DNA of 64,000 bases from Nitrosarchaeum sp. (GTDB lineage Archaea; Thermoproteota; Nitrososphaeria; Nitrososphaerales; Nitrosopumilaceae), in NCBI GenBank assembly GCA_965223865.1, contig OZ245020.1, forward strand, positions 1,440,001 to 1,504,000, in the 5' to 3' direction. The position numbers and the translations under genes were made by a program. Positions 1,293-27,549 of this stretch are shown here, one piece after another. Positions within the stretch are counted from its first letter, which is position 1, and the number at the start of each line of letters is the position of its first letter. The notes under the pieces were generated by a model. It was given only the letters and a program-made list of their open reading frames with translations, made no database searches and had not been told where the DNA came from.

Positions 1293-1655
1293 TTAAGAAT
1301 CAAGTTGTATGGAATATACAACATATTTTCCTTTTTTGGCACTAAAAATTCCAATTAGTTTTGCCATTATTCCATATTTTTTATTTCTAAGAGCAATTGC
1401 TTTTTCTGCTAAATCTCCTTGAATTAGTTTAGCTTTTCCTGAATGCCATTTGCTTTTTGGTTTTCCTGAAAAGTTGGATACGGCAACATTTACTTTATTG
1501 TTATTTGCTATTCGTTTCACTTTTCCAGTAAATTCTCTTGTAACAATCCAAATAAAATTATCAAACTCTACAAACCATACAGGAGTCTTTACAGAATTTC
1601 CTTTTTTTCTAAAAGTTTCCAGTACAATATATTTTTCATTTGGAAAAATATCCAC
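1293..1655 (-). CDS. PPOX-class F420-dependent oxidoreductase
   Basis: YIVLETFRKKGNSVKTPVWF...GKVKRIANN signature. Confidence 0.85.
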   Translation of the reverse strand: MDIFPNEKYIVLETFRKKGNSVKTPVWFVEFDNFIWIVTREFTGKVKRIANNNKVNVAVSNFSGKPKSKWHSGKAKLIQGDLAEKAIALRNKKYGIMAKLIGIFSAKKGKYVVYSIQLDS

Positions 1656-1772
1656 AAAATAATTTCATTTTAAAATAATGTAAAGGTTGCCAGGAATCAT
1701 AATTCCCTATTCAAATTAGCACTAGTCTAGTTGTTATCACTAGGTTAAATATTATAAAGCCAACTAAAACAT

Positions 1773-1958
1773 ATGGCAGAAGAACAAGAATGGGCAAATT
1801 TACTTGCCGAAGTCTTTGACAAGCTTACACAAAAGCATGCCTCAATCACTTATGATTTTGAAGATCTGGAGATGAAAGGCAAAGTCGAAAAAGAGGGCAA
1901 GATAATCCCAACAGGTACGGTTTCCTTAACTGGAAGGCTGACAATTACCGCAAAGTAG
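1773..1958 (+). CDS. Small hypothetical protein
   Basis: 61-aa ORF, TTAAATA box upstream, tandem with next ORF. Confidence 0.65.
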   Translation: MAEEQEWANLLAEVFDKLTQKHASITYDFEDLEMKGKVEKEGKIIPTGTVSLTGRLTITAK

Positions 1959-1968
1959 TGGGTGTGGA

Positions 1969-2334
1969 ATGAAAGAGATAAACTTCCCCGCTAATTTTTT
2001 AACTTTTCTGACAAGTGGAAGCATCAAGATAACAAATGATTGCGTCCCATCAATTAATTTTACAGCAACAAAAGACACTCGAATTATTGACATTATTCAT
2101 ATTCCAGTCACAATTTCAGGCAAGCCTGGTTTAATTAAACAGCTATCTGAAGCAAAGAGTCTTGCAAAAAATCTGAAACAAGAAAATATTACACTTGAAA
2201 TCAGATTTCAAGGTAATCCCGTACTAAAACTAGGAGAAAAAGCAAATCCAAAACTTGCAAAAATTGTCACATTAAGTAGTGATATTGAAATTACAGATTT
2301 GAAGAAACTAAAAAAATTAAGTGATTTAATTTGA
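1969..2334 (+). CDS. Hypothetical protein
   Basis: 121-aa ORF preceded by GGGTG SD-like sequence. Confidence 0.7.
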   Translation: MKEINFPANFLTFLTSGSIKITNDCVPSINFTATKDTRIIDIIHIPVTISGKPGLIKQLSEAKSLAKNLKQENITLEIRFQGNPVLKLGEKANPKLAKIVTLSSDIEITDLKKLKKLSDLI

Positions 2335-2445
2335 TTTGTGAAAAAACTATTCGATAAAACTCCTTGTAAATATTTGGTTGTTGAAGTAAATAAGACAACA
2401 ATCATATCGATTAAAAAATTTTAAAAAATATAATTTGTAAAATAG

Positions 2446-2832
2446 TTAAGACCCCATCATACCTACCATTTTTGGCAACTCACGATACGCTTTGTTTACA
2501 AAAATACCATTATCAGCTTCAATCATTACAAACTCCATCGCATTTTCCGGAGGTGGAGAGATTATAATTTTCTGTCCTACATTGAGTTTCCCAATATCAA
2601 GTGTATCTCCTCCACCAAAATTAACGTGAATATTGGTTAATGGTTGTGAGCCAGTGTTTTGAATGGTAATTCTCCCAGTTACAAACAAATTTTGTTTATC
2701 AATAATAGGATCAACAAAAATATCGTGATCTTGAGTAGAAACAGAAAGTTTCAATATGTCTAGGCCAAAAATTACAGCCATCAAACTAATAATCCCAATA
2801 CCAAATCCAATAAGAATGGTGTATTGATTCAA
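2446..2832 (-). CDS. Membrane-anchored protein with Ig/CARDB-like beta domain
   Basis: N-terminal hydrophobic helix; ITIQNTGSQPLTNI motif. Confidence 0.65.
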   Translation of the reverse strand: MNQYTILIGFGIGIISLMAVIFGLDILKLSVSTQDHDIFVDPIIDKQNLFVTGRITIQNTGSQPLTNIHVNFGGGDTLDIGKLNVGQKIIISPPPENAMEFVMIEADNGIFVNKAYRELPKMVGMMGS

Positions 2833-22915: not shown

Positions 22916-25900
22916 TTAGGATTTTGTTACTTTGGGTTTGGTAGCTTTTTTAGGTTTGGCTACTTTGGGTTTGGTAGCTTTTTTAGGTTTGGCTACTTTG
23001 GGTTTGGTAGCTTTTTTAGGTTTGGCTACTTTGGGTTTGGTAGCTTTTTTAGGTTTGGCTACTTTGGGTTTGGTAGCTTTTTTAGGTTTGGCTACTTTGG
23101 GTTTGGTAGCTTTTTTAGGTTTGGCTACTTTGGGTTTATTCTGTTGCTCACTAATTTTTTGTTTAGTTTGTTCTTGTTTTATTTTTAATTTTTTAATATC
23201 ATCTTTAATTTTTTGTTCCTTCTTTTCTTGCTTTATTTTTAATTTTTCATAATTAGCTTTTTCCCTTTCTAATTGTCTTACTAGAATTTGTTGTTCCTTG
23301 TGTTTTTTCATTTCTTCTTTTTTCTGAATAGAAATCAATTGTTTTTCTTTAGAAATAGAATTAATTAATTCAAGACGTTTTTCTTTAGATTTAATCAATT
23401 CATTTTTTTCTGTTTGAAGCGAATTCTTTATTTTTTCATAATTAGATAATGTAGTTTTTTCTTCTTCAATTTGAGATAAAAGAACATCATGTTCTGATTT
23501 GAACTTTTCAAGAGATTCTTTTTCTGCTTGGAGTTTAGCTAGATTTTCTTTTTGAAGTTCGGATTCTTGTTCAAGGGATTGTTTTTCTGCTTGGAGTTTA
23601 GCCAGGTTTTCTTTTTGGATTGAATATTCATTCTCAAGGGATTGCTGTTCTTGTTTTACTTGTTCTAGAAGTTGGTCATAATCAGATTGTGTCTTTTCAA
23701 GGGATTGTTTTTCTGCTTGGAGTTTAGGTAAGCTTTCTGCTTGGAGTTTGCTATCAGCTGCAATAGCCTGTTTTTCTTTTTCTATTTGGTCTAGTAGATC
23801 ATCGTAATCAGATTGTGTCTTTTCAAGAGATTCTTTTTCTGCTTGGAGTTTAGCCAGGTTTTTTTCTTCAAGTTTACTTTTAGAATCAATATCTTGTTTT
23901 TCTTGATTAATTTTTTGCATTAATTTTTCATTATCAGATTGTGCTTGTTCAAGGGATTGTTTTTCTGCTTGGAGTTTAGCCAGGTTTTCTTTTTGGATTG
24001 AATATTCATTCTCAAGGGATTGCTGTTCTTGTTTTACTTGTTCTAGAAGTTGGTCATAATCAGATTGTGTCTTTTCAAGGGATTGTTTTTCTGCTTGGAG
24101 TTTAGCCAGGTTTTCTTTTTGGATTGAATATTCATTCTCAAGGGATTGCTGTTCTTGTTTTACTTGTTCTAGAAGTTGGTCATAATCAGATTGTGTCTTT
24201 TCAAGGGATTGTTTTTCTGCTTGGAGTTTAGCCAGGTTTTCTTTTTGGATTGAATATTCATTCTCAAGGGATTGCTGTTCTTGTTTTACTTGTTCTAGAA
24301 GTTGGTCATAATCAGATTGTGTCTTTTCAAGGGATTGTTTTTCTGCTTGGAGTTTAGGTAAGCTTTCTGCTTGGAGTTTGCTATCAGCTGCAATAGCCTG
24401 TTTTTCTTTTTCTATTTGGTCTAGTAGATCATCGTAATCAGATTGTGTCTTTTCAAGGGATTGTTTTTCTGCTTGGAGTTTAGCCAGGTTTTCTTTTTGG
24501 ATTGAATATTCATTCTCAAGGGATTGCTGTTCTTGTTTTACTTGTTCTAGAAGTTGGTCATAATCAGATTGTGTCTTTTCAAGGGATTGTTTTTCTGCTT
24601 GGAGTTTAGCCAGGTTTTCTTTTTGGATTGAATATTCATTCTCAAGGGATTGCTGTTCTTGTTTTACTTGTTCTAGAAGTTGGTCATAATCAGATTGTGT
24701 CTTTTCAAGGGATTGTTTTTCTGCTTGGAGTTTAGGTAAGCTTTCTGCTTGGAGTTTGCTATCAGCTGCAATAGCCTGTTTTTCTTTTTCTATTTGGTCT
24801 AGTAGATCATCGTAATCAGATTGTGTCTTTTCAAGAGATTCTTTTTCTGCTTGGAGTTTAGCCAGGTTTTTTTCTTCAAGTTTACTTTTAGAATCAATAT
24901 CTTGTTTTTCTTGATTAATTTTTTGCATTAATTTTTCATTATCAGATTGTGCTTGTTCAAGGGATTGTTTTTCTGCTTGGAGTTTAGCCAGGTTTTCTTT
25001 TTGGATTGAATATTCATTCTCAAGGGATTGCTGTTCTTGTTTTACTTGTTCTAGAAGTTGGTCATAATCAGATTGTGTCTTTTCAAGGGATTGTTTTTCT
25101 GCTTGGAGTTTAGGTAAGCTTTCTGCTTGGAGTTTGCTATCAGCTGCAATAGCCTGTTTTTCTTTTTCTATTTGGTCTAGTAGATCATCGTAATCAGATT
25201 GTGTCTTTTCAAGGGATTGTTTTTCTGCTTGGAGTTTAGCCAGGTTTTCTTTTTGGATTGAATATTCATTCTCAAGGGATTGCTGTTCTTGTTTTAATTC
25301 ATTTATGATTTTATTAATTTCATTTTTTGATTTTTCTAATTCAAGTTTTTCTTCTTCAAGTTGTTTTGATAATTCTGCTTGTTCATGTAATCGGGTTTTT
25401 TGAGACTCTCGCATTTCTTCAAGATGAATTTTTTCTTGTTGAATGTTTTTCTCTACTTCTTCTTGTTCTTTTTGAGCTTGGATTAATTCTGCTTTCTGAG
25501 ATTCAGAATCTTTCATTAAGGATTCTCTTTCTTTTTTGATTTTTTCTAAAACAGCTGTTCTCTCGATTTTTATTTTCTCTAGTTCTGCTTTTTGGGCTGA
25601 AATTTGTTCAAATAAATTAATCTGAGATGAAATACTCTCACGTTCTCTTTTAATTTGAGACAATAGTTCTGCTTTTGCAGATTCAATTTCTTTTTTTCCT
25701 TCTATGTTTGTTTGGTTTGTTTTAGAAAAATCTGGATTTTCTGACTCTGTGTAAATGACTTCTTTAATTTTCGACTCCTCAATATTATTTTTATTAACAA
25801 CATAGGAATCTTCTACAGTGAATTGATTTGAATTCCAACCTTTGGGCATTGTGCCTCTGATTGTCATATTCTCTTTGGATTTTTGATTTGCTTCATTGGT

Positions 25901-26290
25901 TTGATCAGAAGTTCTTTCATCGGTAATCAAGTTAGTTGTATTACTTGATAATTCATTTAGTTTTCGTTGTACATAATTATAATCAGATTGATACAAAGAA
26001 CGGCCTTTTGATAGTGCATCATGTATAGATTGAAGCCGTCCATAATCACCAGCATCAGAATCAATTAGTTTGTCAACAAGGGGTAAAAGATCACTTTGAG
26101 GAACTTCTTCACTTTTAAATTCAAATGAGGATTCTAATAATTTTTCTAGGTACAGTCTATCAGTATTAAACAGAGTTTTGTTATTTCGAAGTGATTCACG
26201 AATGTGATCTAATCTCCCTACATCACCTTTACCAAGATCTATTAATTGGCCAATTCTTTCAATGGTTTCTTCAATAGTTAATTCTTGCAT
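22916..26290 (-). CDS. 1124-aa coiled-coil repeat protein with Lys/Pro/Ala-rich tail
   Basis: Intact ORF; duplicated N-terminal GDxGRL module; heptad-rich centre; (KPKVAKPKKAT)6 tail. Confidence 0.9.
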   Translation of the reverse strand: MQELTIEETIERIGQLIDLGKGDVGRLDHIRESLRNNKTLFNTDRLYLEKLLESSFEFKSEEVPQSDLLPLVDKLIDSDAGDYGRLQSIHDALSKGRSLYQSDYNYVQRKLNELSSNTTNLITDERTSDQTNEANQKSKENMTIRGTMPKGWNSNQFTVEDSYVVNKNNIEESKIKEVIYTESENPDFSKTNQTNIEGKKEIESAKAELLSQIKRERESISSQINLFEQISAQKAELEKIKIERTAVLEKIKKERESLMKDSESQKAELIQAQKEQEEVEKNIQQEKIHLEEMRESQKTRLHEQAELSKQLEEEKLELEKSKNEINKIINELKQEQQSLENEYSIQKENLAKLQAEKQSLEKTQSDYDDLLDQIEKEKQAIAADSKLQAESLPKLQAEKQSLEKTQSDYDQLLEQVKQEQQSLENEYSIQKENLAKLQAEKQSLEQAQSDNEKLMQKINQEKQDIDSKSKLEEKNLAKLQAEKESLEKTQSDYDDLLDQIEKEKQAIAADSKLQAESLPKLQAEKQSLEKTQSDYDQLLEQVKQEQQSLENEYSIQKENLAKLQAEKQSLEKTQSDYDQLLEQVKQEQQSLENEYSIQKENLAKLQAEKQSLEKTQSDYDDLLDQIEKEKQAIAADSKLQAESLPKLQAEKQSLEKTQSDYDQLLEQVKQEQQSLENEYSIQKENLAKLQAEKQSLEKTQSDYDQLLEQVKQEQQSLENEYSIQKENLAKLQAEKQSLEKTQSDYDQLLEQVKQEQQSLENEYSIQKENLAKLQAEKQSLEQAQSDNEKLMQKINQEKQDIDSKSKLEEKNLAKLQAEKESLEKTQSDYDDLLDQIEKEKQAIAADSKLQAESLPKLQAEKQSLEKTQSDYDQLLEQVKQEQQSLENEYSIQKENLAKLQAEKQSLEQESELQKENLAKLQAEKESLEKFKSEHDVLLSQIEEEKTTLSNYEKIKNSLQTEKNELIKSKEKRLELINSISKEKQLISIQKKEEMKKHKEQQILVRQLEREKANYEKLKIKQEKKEQKIKDDIKKLKIKQEQTKQKISEQQNKPKVAKPKKATKPKVAKPKKATKPKVAKPKKATKPKVAKPKKATKPKVAKPKKATKPKVAKPKKATKPKVTKS
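22928..23137. repeat. 33-bp coding tandem repeat, 6 full copies plus a partial copy
   Basis: TACTTTGGGTTTGGTAGCTTTTTTAGGTTTGGC repeated. Confidence 0.97.
23582..25219. repeat. 126-bp (42-aa) coding tandem array, 13 units of three types
   Basis: N-to-C order B-A-C-B-A-A-B-A-A-A-C-B-A, half units on both flanks. Confidence 0.95.
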
Positions 26291-26405
26291 TTACCTCATC
26301 TGAAATCCTATCATTTTTGATTAATGTAATGACAGGATAAAAAAACTTTTGAAAATTCATTTTGTGGAAATTATCAAACACGATCAAACTACGCTCTCAA
26401 AAAAA

Positions 26406-26548
26406 TTAAGCAGAAGGCAAGATGTTTCCATCTTCAAGATTCAGTTCATGCTCTGAACTGAGCAAAGTGACCATTGTCACTTTTATTACGCTTATTTCAT
26501 CGTAATTGATCAATTTCTTGACCATCTCTGAGCCTTTCTGCGCTTTAC
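26406..26548 (-). ncRNA. Candidate multibranched structured RNA
   Basis: Six compatible helices, TAATAT ~30 nt upstream, T7 tract immediately downstream. Confidence 0.6.
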
Positions 26549-26718
26549 ATCCCAGAATTATTTCAAGAATGCAATATTATTACGCATTGATAATATTTAT
26601 TGATGATCTATAATTTCTATATAATTACTATATAGAATAAAATAAAAATTAAAAATATTTGAAATTTTTTTTGGATTTATTCAAATTTTTTAGCAACTAA
26701 TGTATCTTAAAACCAGAT

Positions 26719-27549
26719 TTAGAGTCTTTTTGATAATTGTTTTTTTTGTCCTACAAACAAAATACCAACAATTGCGATTCCTAGAATGGTCATAGTCATA
26801 ACACCAAATTCTGGAACTACGGTAGTCCCAACAATTGTAATTAATTTTGAATTCTCAGTCAACATAATATTGAGAACCCCTAGATCATTTTCTTTTACAT
26901 AATCAAATTCAGAGATCATTTCCCCGTCCACCCAAATTACAAAAGGACCTTCAATCAGATCGAAAGGAAGTCGTAATGTCAAATTATGATCGTCTGATTT
27001 TGCATTTCCAACTATCTCAAAGGTTATTGATTTTTCATCTTCATTAATGGATGCATTGGATAGTAATCCATCGAAATCATATTCCACATCAAATGTGGTC
27101 AATCCATCGCCAGCATCTGCACCAACTTGAGGAAGAATTTGAAATCCTTCAATAACAAACACAGTTCCAGTCATCCAGGGATGAACAAGACAATAGTATG
27201 GATACTCATCTTTTTCGGTAAAAATAAAAGAAAATGATTTTCCAGGTGCAAATAAACCACTATCAAACATGTCATCTGGTCCATCAGTAGGAGTTCCAGA
27301 AGTTACGGTATGTGCAGCAGTATCTGCATTTTTCCAAACCACTTCATCACCAATCTCTATTGTAATATCGCCAGTAGTACTACCGTCTTTCTCACTTTGC
27401 CAGAAATATGGCGCATCAGGACTGGCAGCACCTGTGGGAATATTGATATCATAACTTGAAAAACCATATACCGGTCCTACCATAGAAAATACAAATAATC
27501 CAAAAATTGCAGAAAGCAAAAAAAGAGATTTCATAAATTTACTTTGCAT
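26719..27549 (-). CDS. Plastocyanin-like blue copper protein with PEFG-CTERM anchor
   Basis: Signal peptide; AAHTVTSG...YYCLVHPWM type-1 Cu ligands; VPEFG + TM + basic tail. Confidence 0.92.
   Translation of the reverse strand: MQSKFMKSLFLLSAIFGLFVFSMVGPVYGFSSYDINIPTGAASPDAPYFWQSEKDGSTTGDITIEIGDEVVWKNADTAAHTVTSGTPTDGPDDMFDSGLFAPGKSFSFIFTEKDEYPYYCLVHPWMTGTVFVIEGFQILPQVGADAGDGLTTFDVEYDFDGLLSNASINEDEKSITFEIVGNAKSDDHNLTLRLPFDLIEGPFVIWVDGEMISEFDYVKENDLGVLNIMLTENSKLITIVGTTVVPEFGVMTMTILGIAIVGILFVGQKKQLSKRL

Follow-up and report, generated by a model that had tools for sequence, protein, structure and literature searches.

A probable stand-alone gene for a compact structured RNA in Nitrosopumilaceae

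Introduction

Ammonia-oxidising archaea (AOA) drive nitrification in oceans and soils, and to our knowledge almost nothing is known of their non-coding RNAs (ncRNAs). One of the closest described systems is Tan1 (Thalassoarchaea ncRNA 1), which the text of PMC5069720 presents as a 229 nt ncRNA from marine group II Euryarchaeota, discovered through its abundant transcript. Here we analyse a 64,000-nt stretch of DNA from Nitrosarchaeum sp., family Nitrosopumilaceae (assembly GCA_965223865.1, contig OZ245020.1, positions 1,440,001 to 1,504,000; the window below), in which an initial annotation had proposed, on the minus strand at 26399-26590, a multibranched RNA that would be a stand-alone ncRNA or an attenuator/riboswitch-like leader. 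Our analysis suggests that this element, running on the minus strand from about 26572 to 26399, is probably a gene in its own right, encoding a compact RNA of about 175 nt that represents a previously undescribed RNA family of Nitrosopumilaceae. The stand-alone half of the proposal gained from a promoter-like block of the RNA's own, a U-tract and varied neighbourhoods, and the leader half came out weaker. Full-text literature searches and the texts of PMC5069720 and PMC4836417, supplements (including the thaumarchaeal start sites of PMC5069720) aside, gave no description of such an RNA. What is new is thus a family without a described relative; its general kind, the stand-alone structured ncRNA, is familiar.

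Results

Predicted fold of the RNA

Folded as minus-strand RNA, the region 26399-26590 reached a minimum free energy (MFE) of -59.5 kcal/mol, compared with -38.1 +/- 3.85 kcal/mol for 200 dinucleotide shuffles, none of which did as well (z -5.56), and the full-length RNA of the window gave a fold z of -5.21. The predicted elements are as follows.

26399..26572, minus strand: whole predicted RNA, about 174 nt, with the promoter spacing used to place the 5' end and the U-tract the 3' end
26548..26571, minus strand: P0, 5' hairpin CAUUCU-U-GAA-AUAA-UUC-U-GGGAUG (MFE)
26532..26541, minus strand: P1 closing stem, 5' strand GCAGAAAGGC (MFE and two-species consensus)
26410..26418, minus strand: P1 closing stem, 3' strand GCCUUCUGC (MFE and two-species consensus)
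26524..26528, minus strand: P1b, 5' strand GAGAU, tentative, with AUCUU as partner
26436..26440, minus strand: P1b, 3' strand AUCUU, tentative, enclosing P2-P5 and leaving P6 outside
26507..26524, minus strand: P2, hairpin UGGUCAA-GAAA-UUGAUCA with a GNRA loop (MFE and two-species consensus)
26485..26506, minus strand: P3, hairpin AUUACG-AUGAAAUAAG-CGUAAU, whose loop motif GAUGAAA recurs across the family
26464..26483, minus strand: P4, hairpin AAAGUGAC-AAUG-GUCACUUU, containing GACAAnGGUY, the most conserved element of the family
26441..26461, minus strand: P5, hairpin UCAGUUCA-GAGCA-UGAACUGA, differing in sequence among lineages
26419..26434, minus strand: P6, hairpin AAGAUG-GAAA-CAUCUU (MFE and two-species consensus)
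26399..26405, minus strand: U7 tract immediately 3' of P1, a likely archaeal terminator

All complementarities named in the initial annotation are present at their places on the minus strand, and four of the six helices drawn there (P1, P3, P4 and P5) stand in both the MFE fold and the two-species consensus. The remaining two, AGAUG/CAUCU and UCAAGA/UCUUGA nested inside the closing stem, gave way in both predictions to the GAAA-capped hairpins P2 and P6, and the alternative partner AAGAUG that had been mentioned for CAUCUU is the very pairing of P6. Across six relatives the nested helices pair in 11/24 and 11/19 cells, compared with 36/39 and 24/26 for P2 and P6, on an alignment fitted to the hairpin model and therefore biased towards it. 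The U7 tract was correctly placed directly after the closing stem, at 26405-26399. The six helices do not mark the 5' limit of the RNA, as P0 (26571-26548) precedes them.

A family of homologues in Nitrosopumilaceae

A BLAST search of 61 relatives returned a single true homologue, in a genome of the same genus (G004, 92% identity), the other matches being short and due to chance, and gave no second copy of the RNA in the window's own genome. Relative to the window, G004 carries a UC to CU change in the 3' strand of P2 that exchanges a G-C and a G-U pair and keeps the pairing, two changes in the 3' strand of P4 that yield U-G and G-U pairs, possible on the minus strand only, a G to A change that converts a G-U pair of P1b into A-U, and one additional base in the P5 loop. 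Contigs from two sequencing runs (kind not stated) show a second strain with the three inserted bases of G004 (26447, 26508-26509), beside contigs identical to the window.

Three covariance models extended the search: R1 from two sequences, R2 from 7 sequences of group A, to which the window's RNA belongs, and R3 from 13 sequences of group B only. Outside the genus, R1 gave full-length matches in genomes such as G105 (E 1e-11) and G003 and, among 40 fetched regions upstream of orthologues of the coiled-coil gene that follows the RNA in the window, further matches in G001, G026, G074 and G014. R2 matched weakly in four further genera, and these matches, counted as group B, have the upstream block and the U-tract in common, along with the core of P1 (AUGCAG...CUGCAU), hairpin P4 and the GAUGAAA of the P3 loop. 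With R3 we found one match per genome in 10/10 genomes of genus g5, 5/5 of g8, 10/10 of g10, 9/9 of g26, 1/2 of g11 and 1/1 of g23; the genomes sampled from the four genera g5, g8, g10 and g26 all hold a single copy. Three of the 36 R3-matching genomes are flagged as unpublished (G103, G117 and G118), and without them the counts become 9/9 for g5, 4/4 for g8 and 9/9 for g10. R3 in turn recovered group-A loci on the correct strand and with the correct span, among them that of the window (L039:1503-1648, E 0.045 in 117 kb), G016 (1.7e-6), G028 (6e-6), G014 and G026. Because the group-A model finds group B and the group-B model finds group A, we treat the two groups as one family. Its members measure 165-220 nt and form eight helices, and 23 copies have a G+C content of 36-48%.

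The carriers comprise 44 of the 151 sampled Nitrosopumilaceae genomes (41/148 without the unpublished ones) and 10 of 27 genera, and neither R2 nor R3 found a match in 128 sampled genomes from 19 other families of the order. A pattern scan of a genome collection returned at least 120 matches; among the 80 listed, R3 confirmed 18 of the 19 thaumarchaeal stretches, and at E up to 0.01 it matched none of the 61 non-thaumarchaeal ones, which are chance matches. The R3-confirmed records among the matches listed include at least 11 from Nitrosotalea, one of them the cultured Ca. (Candidatus) Nitrosotalea devanaterra (LN890280.1). A crude family pattern matched 93 of 401 family genomes (88/396 without five unpublished ones; 55/63 in g10), compared with 6 matches for a reversed control pattern; it cannot match the window's RNA, and its match in the window's own genome is a chance match elsewhere.

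Within genus g13, where the RNA is otherwise rare, the crude pattern gave 7 matches in 99 genomes, mostly in coding-like DNA. One g13 genome, G518, holds two near-identical matches to a group-A-type pattern (G518:C59:2118-2258 and G518:C73:2950-3087), which may reflect duplication of the RNA gene or of sequence in the assembly. Several weak R1/R2 matches (G091, G089 and a second place in the window's genome, G000, at 1695269-1695430) were judged false on reading, and others (G113, G169, C152 of G141 and a second place in G004) have no adjoining coiled-coil gene.

Conservation and covariation of the helices

When the 23 full-length homologues were folded singly, with nothing fitted, P0 appeared in 23/23, the P1 core in 22/23 and P4 in 22/23, and the z scores ranged from -2.9 to -7.8 with a median of -5.6 (40 shuffles each). 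The alignments of both groups were fitted to models and favour the modelled structure. The 28 group-B sequences pair in 95.9% of cells, compared with 21-46% when the partners are slid; both sides change in 16 of 33 pairs, compared with 1-6 when slid, and the covariation score was reached by none of 500 shuffles. RNAalifold predicted the same helices anew on this alignment. The 7 sequences of group A, the window's among them, pair in 92.4% of cells, compared with 30-43% slid, and both sides change in 36 of 44 pairs, compared with 2-9 slid.

Helix by helix, changes on both sides were counted in group A at 8 of 9 pairs in P1 (99.6% of cells pair in group B), 7 of 7 in P2, 7 of 7 in P5 (84% of cells pair) and 5 of 6 in P6. 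P4 combines a GAC-AAnG-GU that is invariant in 23/23 sequences with both-side changes in 4 of 7 pairs on an unfitted MAFFT alignment. Unfitted MAFFT alignments of all 23 sequences are column-consistent for P1 and P4 only, so that the remaining helices can be counted only on the model-fitted alignments. For the tentative P1b, both sides change in 5 of 5 pairs in group B and the single fold of G105 has the same topology, while the group-A columns pair in 10 of 21 cells and give no column-by-column support. The strand is marked by many G-U pairs, and model scores on the reverse strand are far lower (for example, 23.9 vs 129.5 bits).

Some short words recur in these RNAs. GGUCA is repeated in P2 (26507-26524) and P4 (26464-26483) in both groups, and group-B RNAs hold many AAGGA/AAAGG words in or beside loops, with AUCCUCCC as their P0 loop; one candidate idea is that such words may be repeated docking sites.

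Promoter-like block and U-tract

Two conserved blocks precede the RNA.

26593..26600, minus strand: TATA-like box ATAAATAT (consensus of the family TTAAATAAT), with constant spacing to the RNA in the 23 homologues, which were anchored on it
26573..26584, minus strand: conserved CGTAATAATATT block, family core ACGTA, between the TATA-like box and the start, containing the TATA-like box of the initial annotation

In the 23 homologues the consensus upstream is TTAAATAAT, with ACGTA about 14 nt downstream of it and the first helix after that, in a comparison made at the sequence level in which the box itself served as the anchor and set the 5' limits. From what is generally known of archaeal promoters, this spacing would suit a TATA box and a proximal element, with the predicted start just before P0. 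The initial annotation had placed its TATA-like box inside an AATGC...GCATT palindrome, and this palindrome is not conserved, being broken already in G004. Since TTAAATAAT and ACGTA are conserved and the palindrome is not, ATAAATAT (26600-26593) is the likelier TATA box, and TAATAATA lies between the box and the start. At the other end, a T run of at least five follows P1 directly in 22 of the 23 homologues, and a T4 in the remaining one. From these features we infer promoter and terminator roles for the two elements.

Gene neighbourhood of the RNA

The window is AT-rich (G+C 0.27-0.39 in 2-kb windows), and its RNA sits between a blue-copper protein gene and a coiled-coil gene, all on the minus strand.

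26719-27549, minus strand: blue-copper protein gene upstream of the RNA (Pfam Copper-bind, 276 aa)
22916-26290, minus strand: coiled-coil gene downstream of the RNA (1124 aa, no Pfam family)
26335..26349, minus strand: AAAGTTTTTTTATCC, promoter-like block of the coiled-coil gene's own, marking the boundary of the RNA gene, with a Shine-Dalgarno-like GAGGU motif next
26406..26525, minus strand: 39-aa ATG-to-stop frame inside the RNA, judged spurious
G000:C1:341840-345280, 1.1 Mb from the RNA: orthologue of the group-B context gene and Snf7-like gene, open reading frames (ORFs) 1480-1947 (+) and 1951-2598 (-)

A coiled-coil orthologue lies downstream of each of the nine group-A copies, within about 150 nt in eight and at about 430 nt in G014. 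The AAAGTTTTTTTATCC block is conserved in 6 of the 8 carriers compared, and coiled-coil orthologues that have no RNA retain a promoter-like T7-AT block about 55 nt before the ATG. A T7-8 run stands at the same place in 14 of 36 fetched upstream regions without the RNA (17/40 overall). In the window and the fetched relatives a AAAGTTTTTTTAT block lies about 55 nt before the coiled-coil ATG and is followed by an AGGUGA/GAGGU motif, together probably the promoter and ribosome-binding site of that gene. In a congener (G006:C48:1315-1975), a coiled-coil head of 73% identity has about 400 nt of ORF-free DNA upstream with no match to the RNA models, which suggests that the RNA was recently lost or replaced there. 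The blue-copper protein has a signal-like N-terminus and ends in VPEFG plus a hydrophobic tail, which resembles the PEFG-CTERM sorting signal of these archaea.

Group B presents another setting. A divergent small gene precedes the RNA in 27 of 28 loci by script, and the 28th (L124) has the gene too, masked by another frame; this gene has no Pfam family, and as a query it found no match in the window's genome. An MFS transporter gene (MFS_1) follows the RNA in 25 of 28 loci, across a spacer with a conserved block of its own, TGYATCRTACAATAAT. In the other three the MFS gene is gone and a convergent Snf7-like gene follows, with the RNA intact at 110-117 bits. G016 shows yet another gene context, and of the 29 loci outside group A with examined flanks, 4 have a convergent gene downstream. 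The RNA thus occurs in at least three different gene contexts and is conserved independently of its neighbours. In group B the small gene, the RNA and mostly an MFS gene are found between or beside a small coiled-coil gene and the Snf7-like gene. The window's genome has an orthologue of that coiled-coil gene (63% identity), which there directly adjoins a convergent Snf7-like gene, and no RNA intervenes; the models gave no second convincing match in that genome. This RNA-free form of the group-B context suggests that the RNA gene changed place in evolution, keeping its own signals, or was lost there. The 192-aa coiled-coil gene of group B was considered as a relative of the window's coiled-coil protein and found unrelated (best E 0.96).

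Search for known RNA classes

The initial annotation had suggested a look in Rfam, and there the whole window gave no match to the 4227 models of Rfam 15 at gathering thresholds. At E up to 10, the region 26200-26800 gave a single chance match, to a miRNA model outside the RNA (E 3.6), and six diverse homologue loci gave one chance miRNA match at E up to 1. ARAGORN found no tRNA or tmRNA gene in the window.

Box C/D guides carry a terminal C box RUGAUGA and D box CUGA, and H/ACA guides a pocket-bearing hairpin with an ACA box after it. The P3 loop reads GUGAUGA in G003 and G105, and CGAUGA in the window. Both guide types were rejected on inspection of the alignments: terminal C/D pairing is absent, the hairpins are enclosed by P1, and Rfam gave no match of snoRNA type. 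RNase P RNA (RF00373) and SRP RNA (RF01857) were likewise set aside, both being found above their cut-offs elsewhere in the genome, at G000:C1:1697181-1697459 and 235214-235525.

Weighing of alternative explanations

Short inverted repeats abound in AT-rich intergenic DNA and the single RNA-library contig leaves the RNA uncovered, so one might see here chance palindromes or DNA-level signals, whether promoter and terminator or protein-binding inverted repeats only, and no RNA at all; we consider this extremely unlikely in view of the z of -5.56, the compensatory changes with their many strand-specific G-U pairs, a 9-bp stem that reaches across about 120 nt with its core kept in 22/23 single folds, and a G+C of 36-48% in 23 copies, set beside 0.27-0.39 in the 2-kb windows of the stretch analysed. 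A gene for a 39-aa peptide with incidental helices deserves next to no credence. The 39-codon ATG-to-stop frame that the initial annotation had pointed out as overlapping the RNA does exist; in the 92%-identical G004, indels of +2 and +1 shift it to a stop after 11 aa, the longest sense frames of the other eight group-A homologues (13-33 aa) are unrelated to it, none of the nine other group-A homologues has a related frame, and it has no Pfam match. What the homologues conserve is the helices, with substitutions that preserve base pairs, and not the peptide, the opposite of the outcome that the initial annotation had named as speaking against its RNA. A processed or 3'-untranslated-region fragment of the blue-copper (plastocyanin-like) transcript would agree with the arrangement in the window, G004 and G105, where that gene shares the RNA's strand and has its end about 145 nt upstream of it. 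This origin is very unlikely, as all 23 homologues have a TATA-like block at constant spacing upstream of the RNA and the upstream gene of group B is divergent in 27 of 28 loci, which leaves no read-in transcript there.

A cis-acting leader, in which the closing stem and the U-tract would stop RNA polymerase or pass it into the downstream gene (the coiled-coil gene, or the MFS gene in group B), is unlikely in our estimate, and part of the evidence does pull towards it and away from an independent gene. As a leader requires, a gene on the same strand follows within about 65-430 nt in 34 of 38 loci (9/9 in group A and 25/29 in the others, 25/28 when group B is counted alone); the stem and U-tract together resemble an intrinsic terminator, and the window offers the pairings AGAUG/CAUCU and UCAAGA/UCUUGA as alternatives to P2 and P6. 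The sole RNA-library contig (203 nt, from a relative 94% alike, depth 8.3) spans 26200-26392: it covers the 5' end of the coiled-coil gene and the whole spacer, ends a few bases 3' of the U-tract and does not cover the RNA. It comes from one RNA run (share 0.04), beside three other runs of a kind not stated, available as contigs. Because the contig extends upstream of the predicted TATA block of the coiled-coil gene, either that block is not the sole start or some transcription crosses the spacer, and the contig keeps the read-through model alive. The distribution is also patchy, these models not finding the RNA in 107 of the 151 sampled genomes, three of the window's own genus included, which implies that it is not a universal housekeeping RNA. 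Against a leader stand the unrelated nature of the downstream genes (a coiled-coil gene without a Pfam family, an MFS transporter, a convergent Snf7-like gene and another in G016), the persistence of an intact RNA in the three genomes without the MFS gene, and the conserved promoter-like blocks that separate the U-tract from the downstream gene of either kind; coiled-coil orthologues keep theirs even without the RNA. Nor are the switching helices conserved in relatives, at the 11/24 and 11/19 cells given above on an alignment fitted to the other structure. The RNA's own signals, its changing neighbours and the promoter-like blocks before the downstream genes together favour an autonomous gene.

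Discussion

We propose that the window carries an autonomous gene for a structured RNA. Transcription would start about 22 nt after the TATA-like box ATAAATAT; the transcript would fold into a 5' hairpin, P0, and then a 9-bp P1 closing a multi-branch core of five hairpins, P2-P6, with GAAA loops in P2 and P6, GAUGAAA in P3 and an invariant GAC-AAnG-GUY in P4; and transcription would end at the U7 that abuts P1. The RNA might then act in trans as a folded particle that binds protein, serves as a scaffold or is itself active. Near-full pairing, with the conserved letters lying within P1 and the loops of P3 and P4, points to such a trans-acting folded particle, which on these features we regard as the most likely role, ahead of regulation by base pairing or service as a leader to the coiled-coil gene. 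It is quite unlikely, in our view, that the RNA is a sensor, that is, a new riboswitch-like class controlling read-through at the U-tract into whichever gene follows, or the RNA core of an AOA-specific ribonucleoprotein machine; a sensor of this kind, if real, would be the first riboswitch acting by transcription attenuation to be described in archaea.

The three covariance models R1, R2 and R3 can be used for annotation, and the family offers a concrete target for experiments. Its patchy spread and shifting neighbourhoods raise the question of what role a complex RNA plays that is apparently dispensable in some close relatives.

Compared with known systems, the RNA resembles riboswitch and attenuator leaders in having a multi-branch domain closed by P1, a U-tract at once after it and usually a same-strand gene downstream. 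It differs from them in that the downstream genes are unrelated and have promoter-like blocks of their own, in that it persists before a convergent gene, and in matching no riboswitch family in Rfam. Like RNase P RNA and SRP RNA it is structured, single-copy and of elevated G+C in an AT-rich genome, while it is shorter than these and not universal in Nitrosopumilaceae. Bacterial 6S RNA, Y RNA and CsrB/RsmZ are stand-alone protein-binding or scaffold RNAs, and we know of no such systems in archaea. With them the RNA would share a predicted promoter and terminator of its own, near-full pairing and conservation centred on a few loops, a likeness that we use as a working analogy, and it differs from them in having no Rfam match to any. 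The comparison with Tan1 (PMC5069720) is one by description only, with an RNA of another phylum, and the new RNA is known here from sequence alone. Within that frame the two are alike: both belong to archaea, are restricted to one lineage, measure about 200 nt and have a complex predicted fold, neither has an Rfam family or known function, and Tan1 stands alone as the new RNA probably does.

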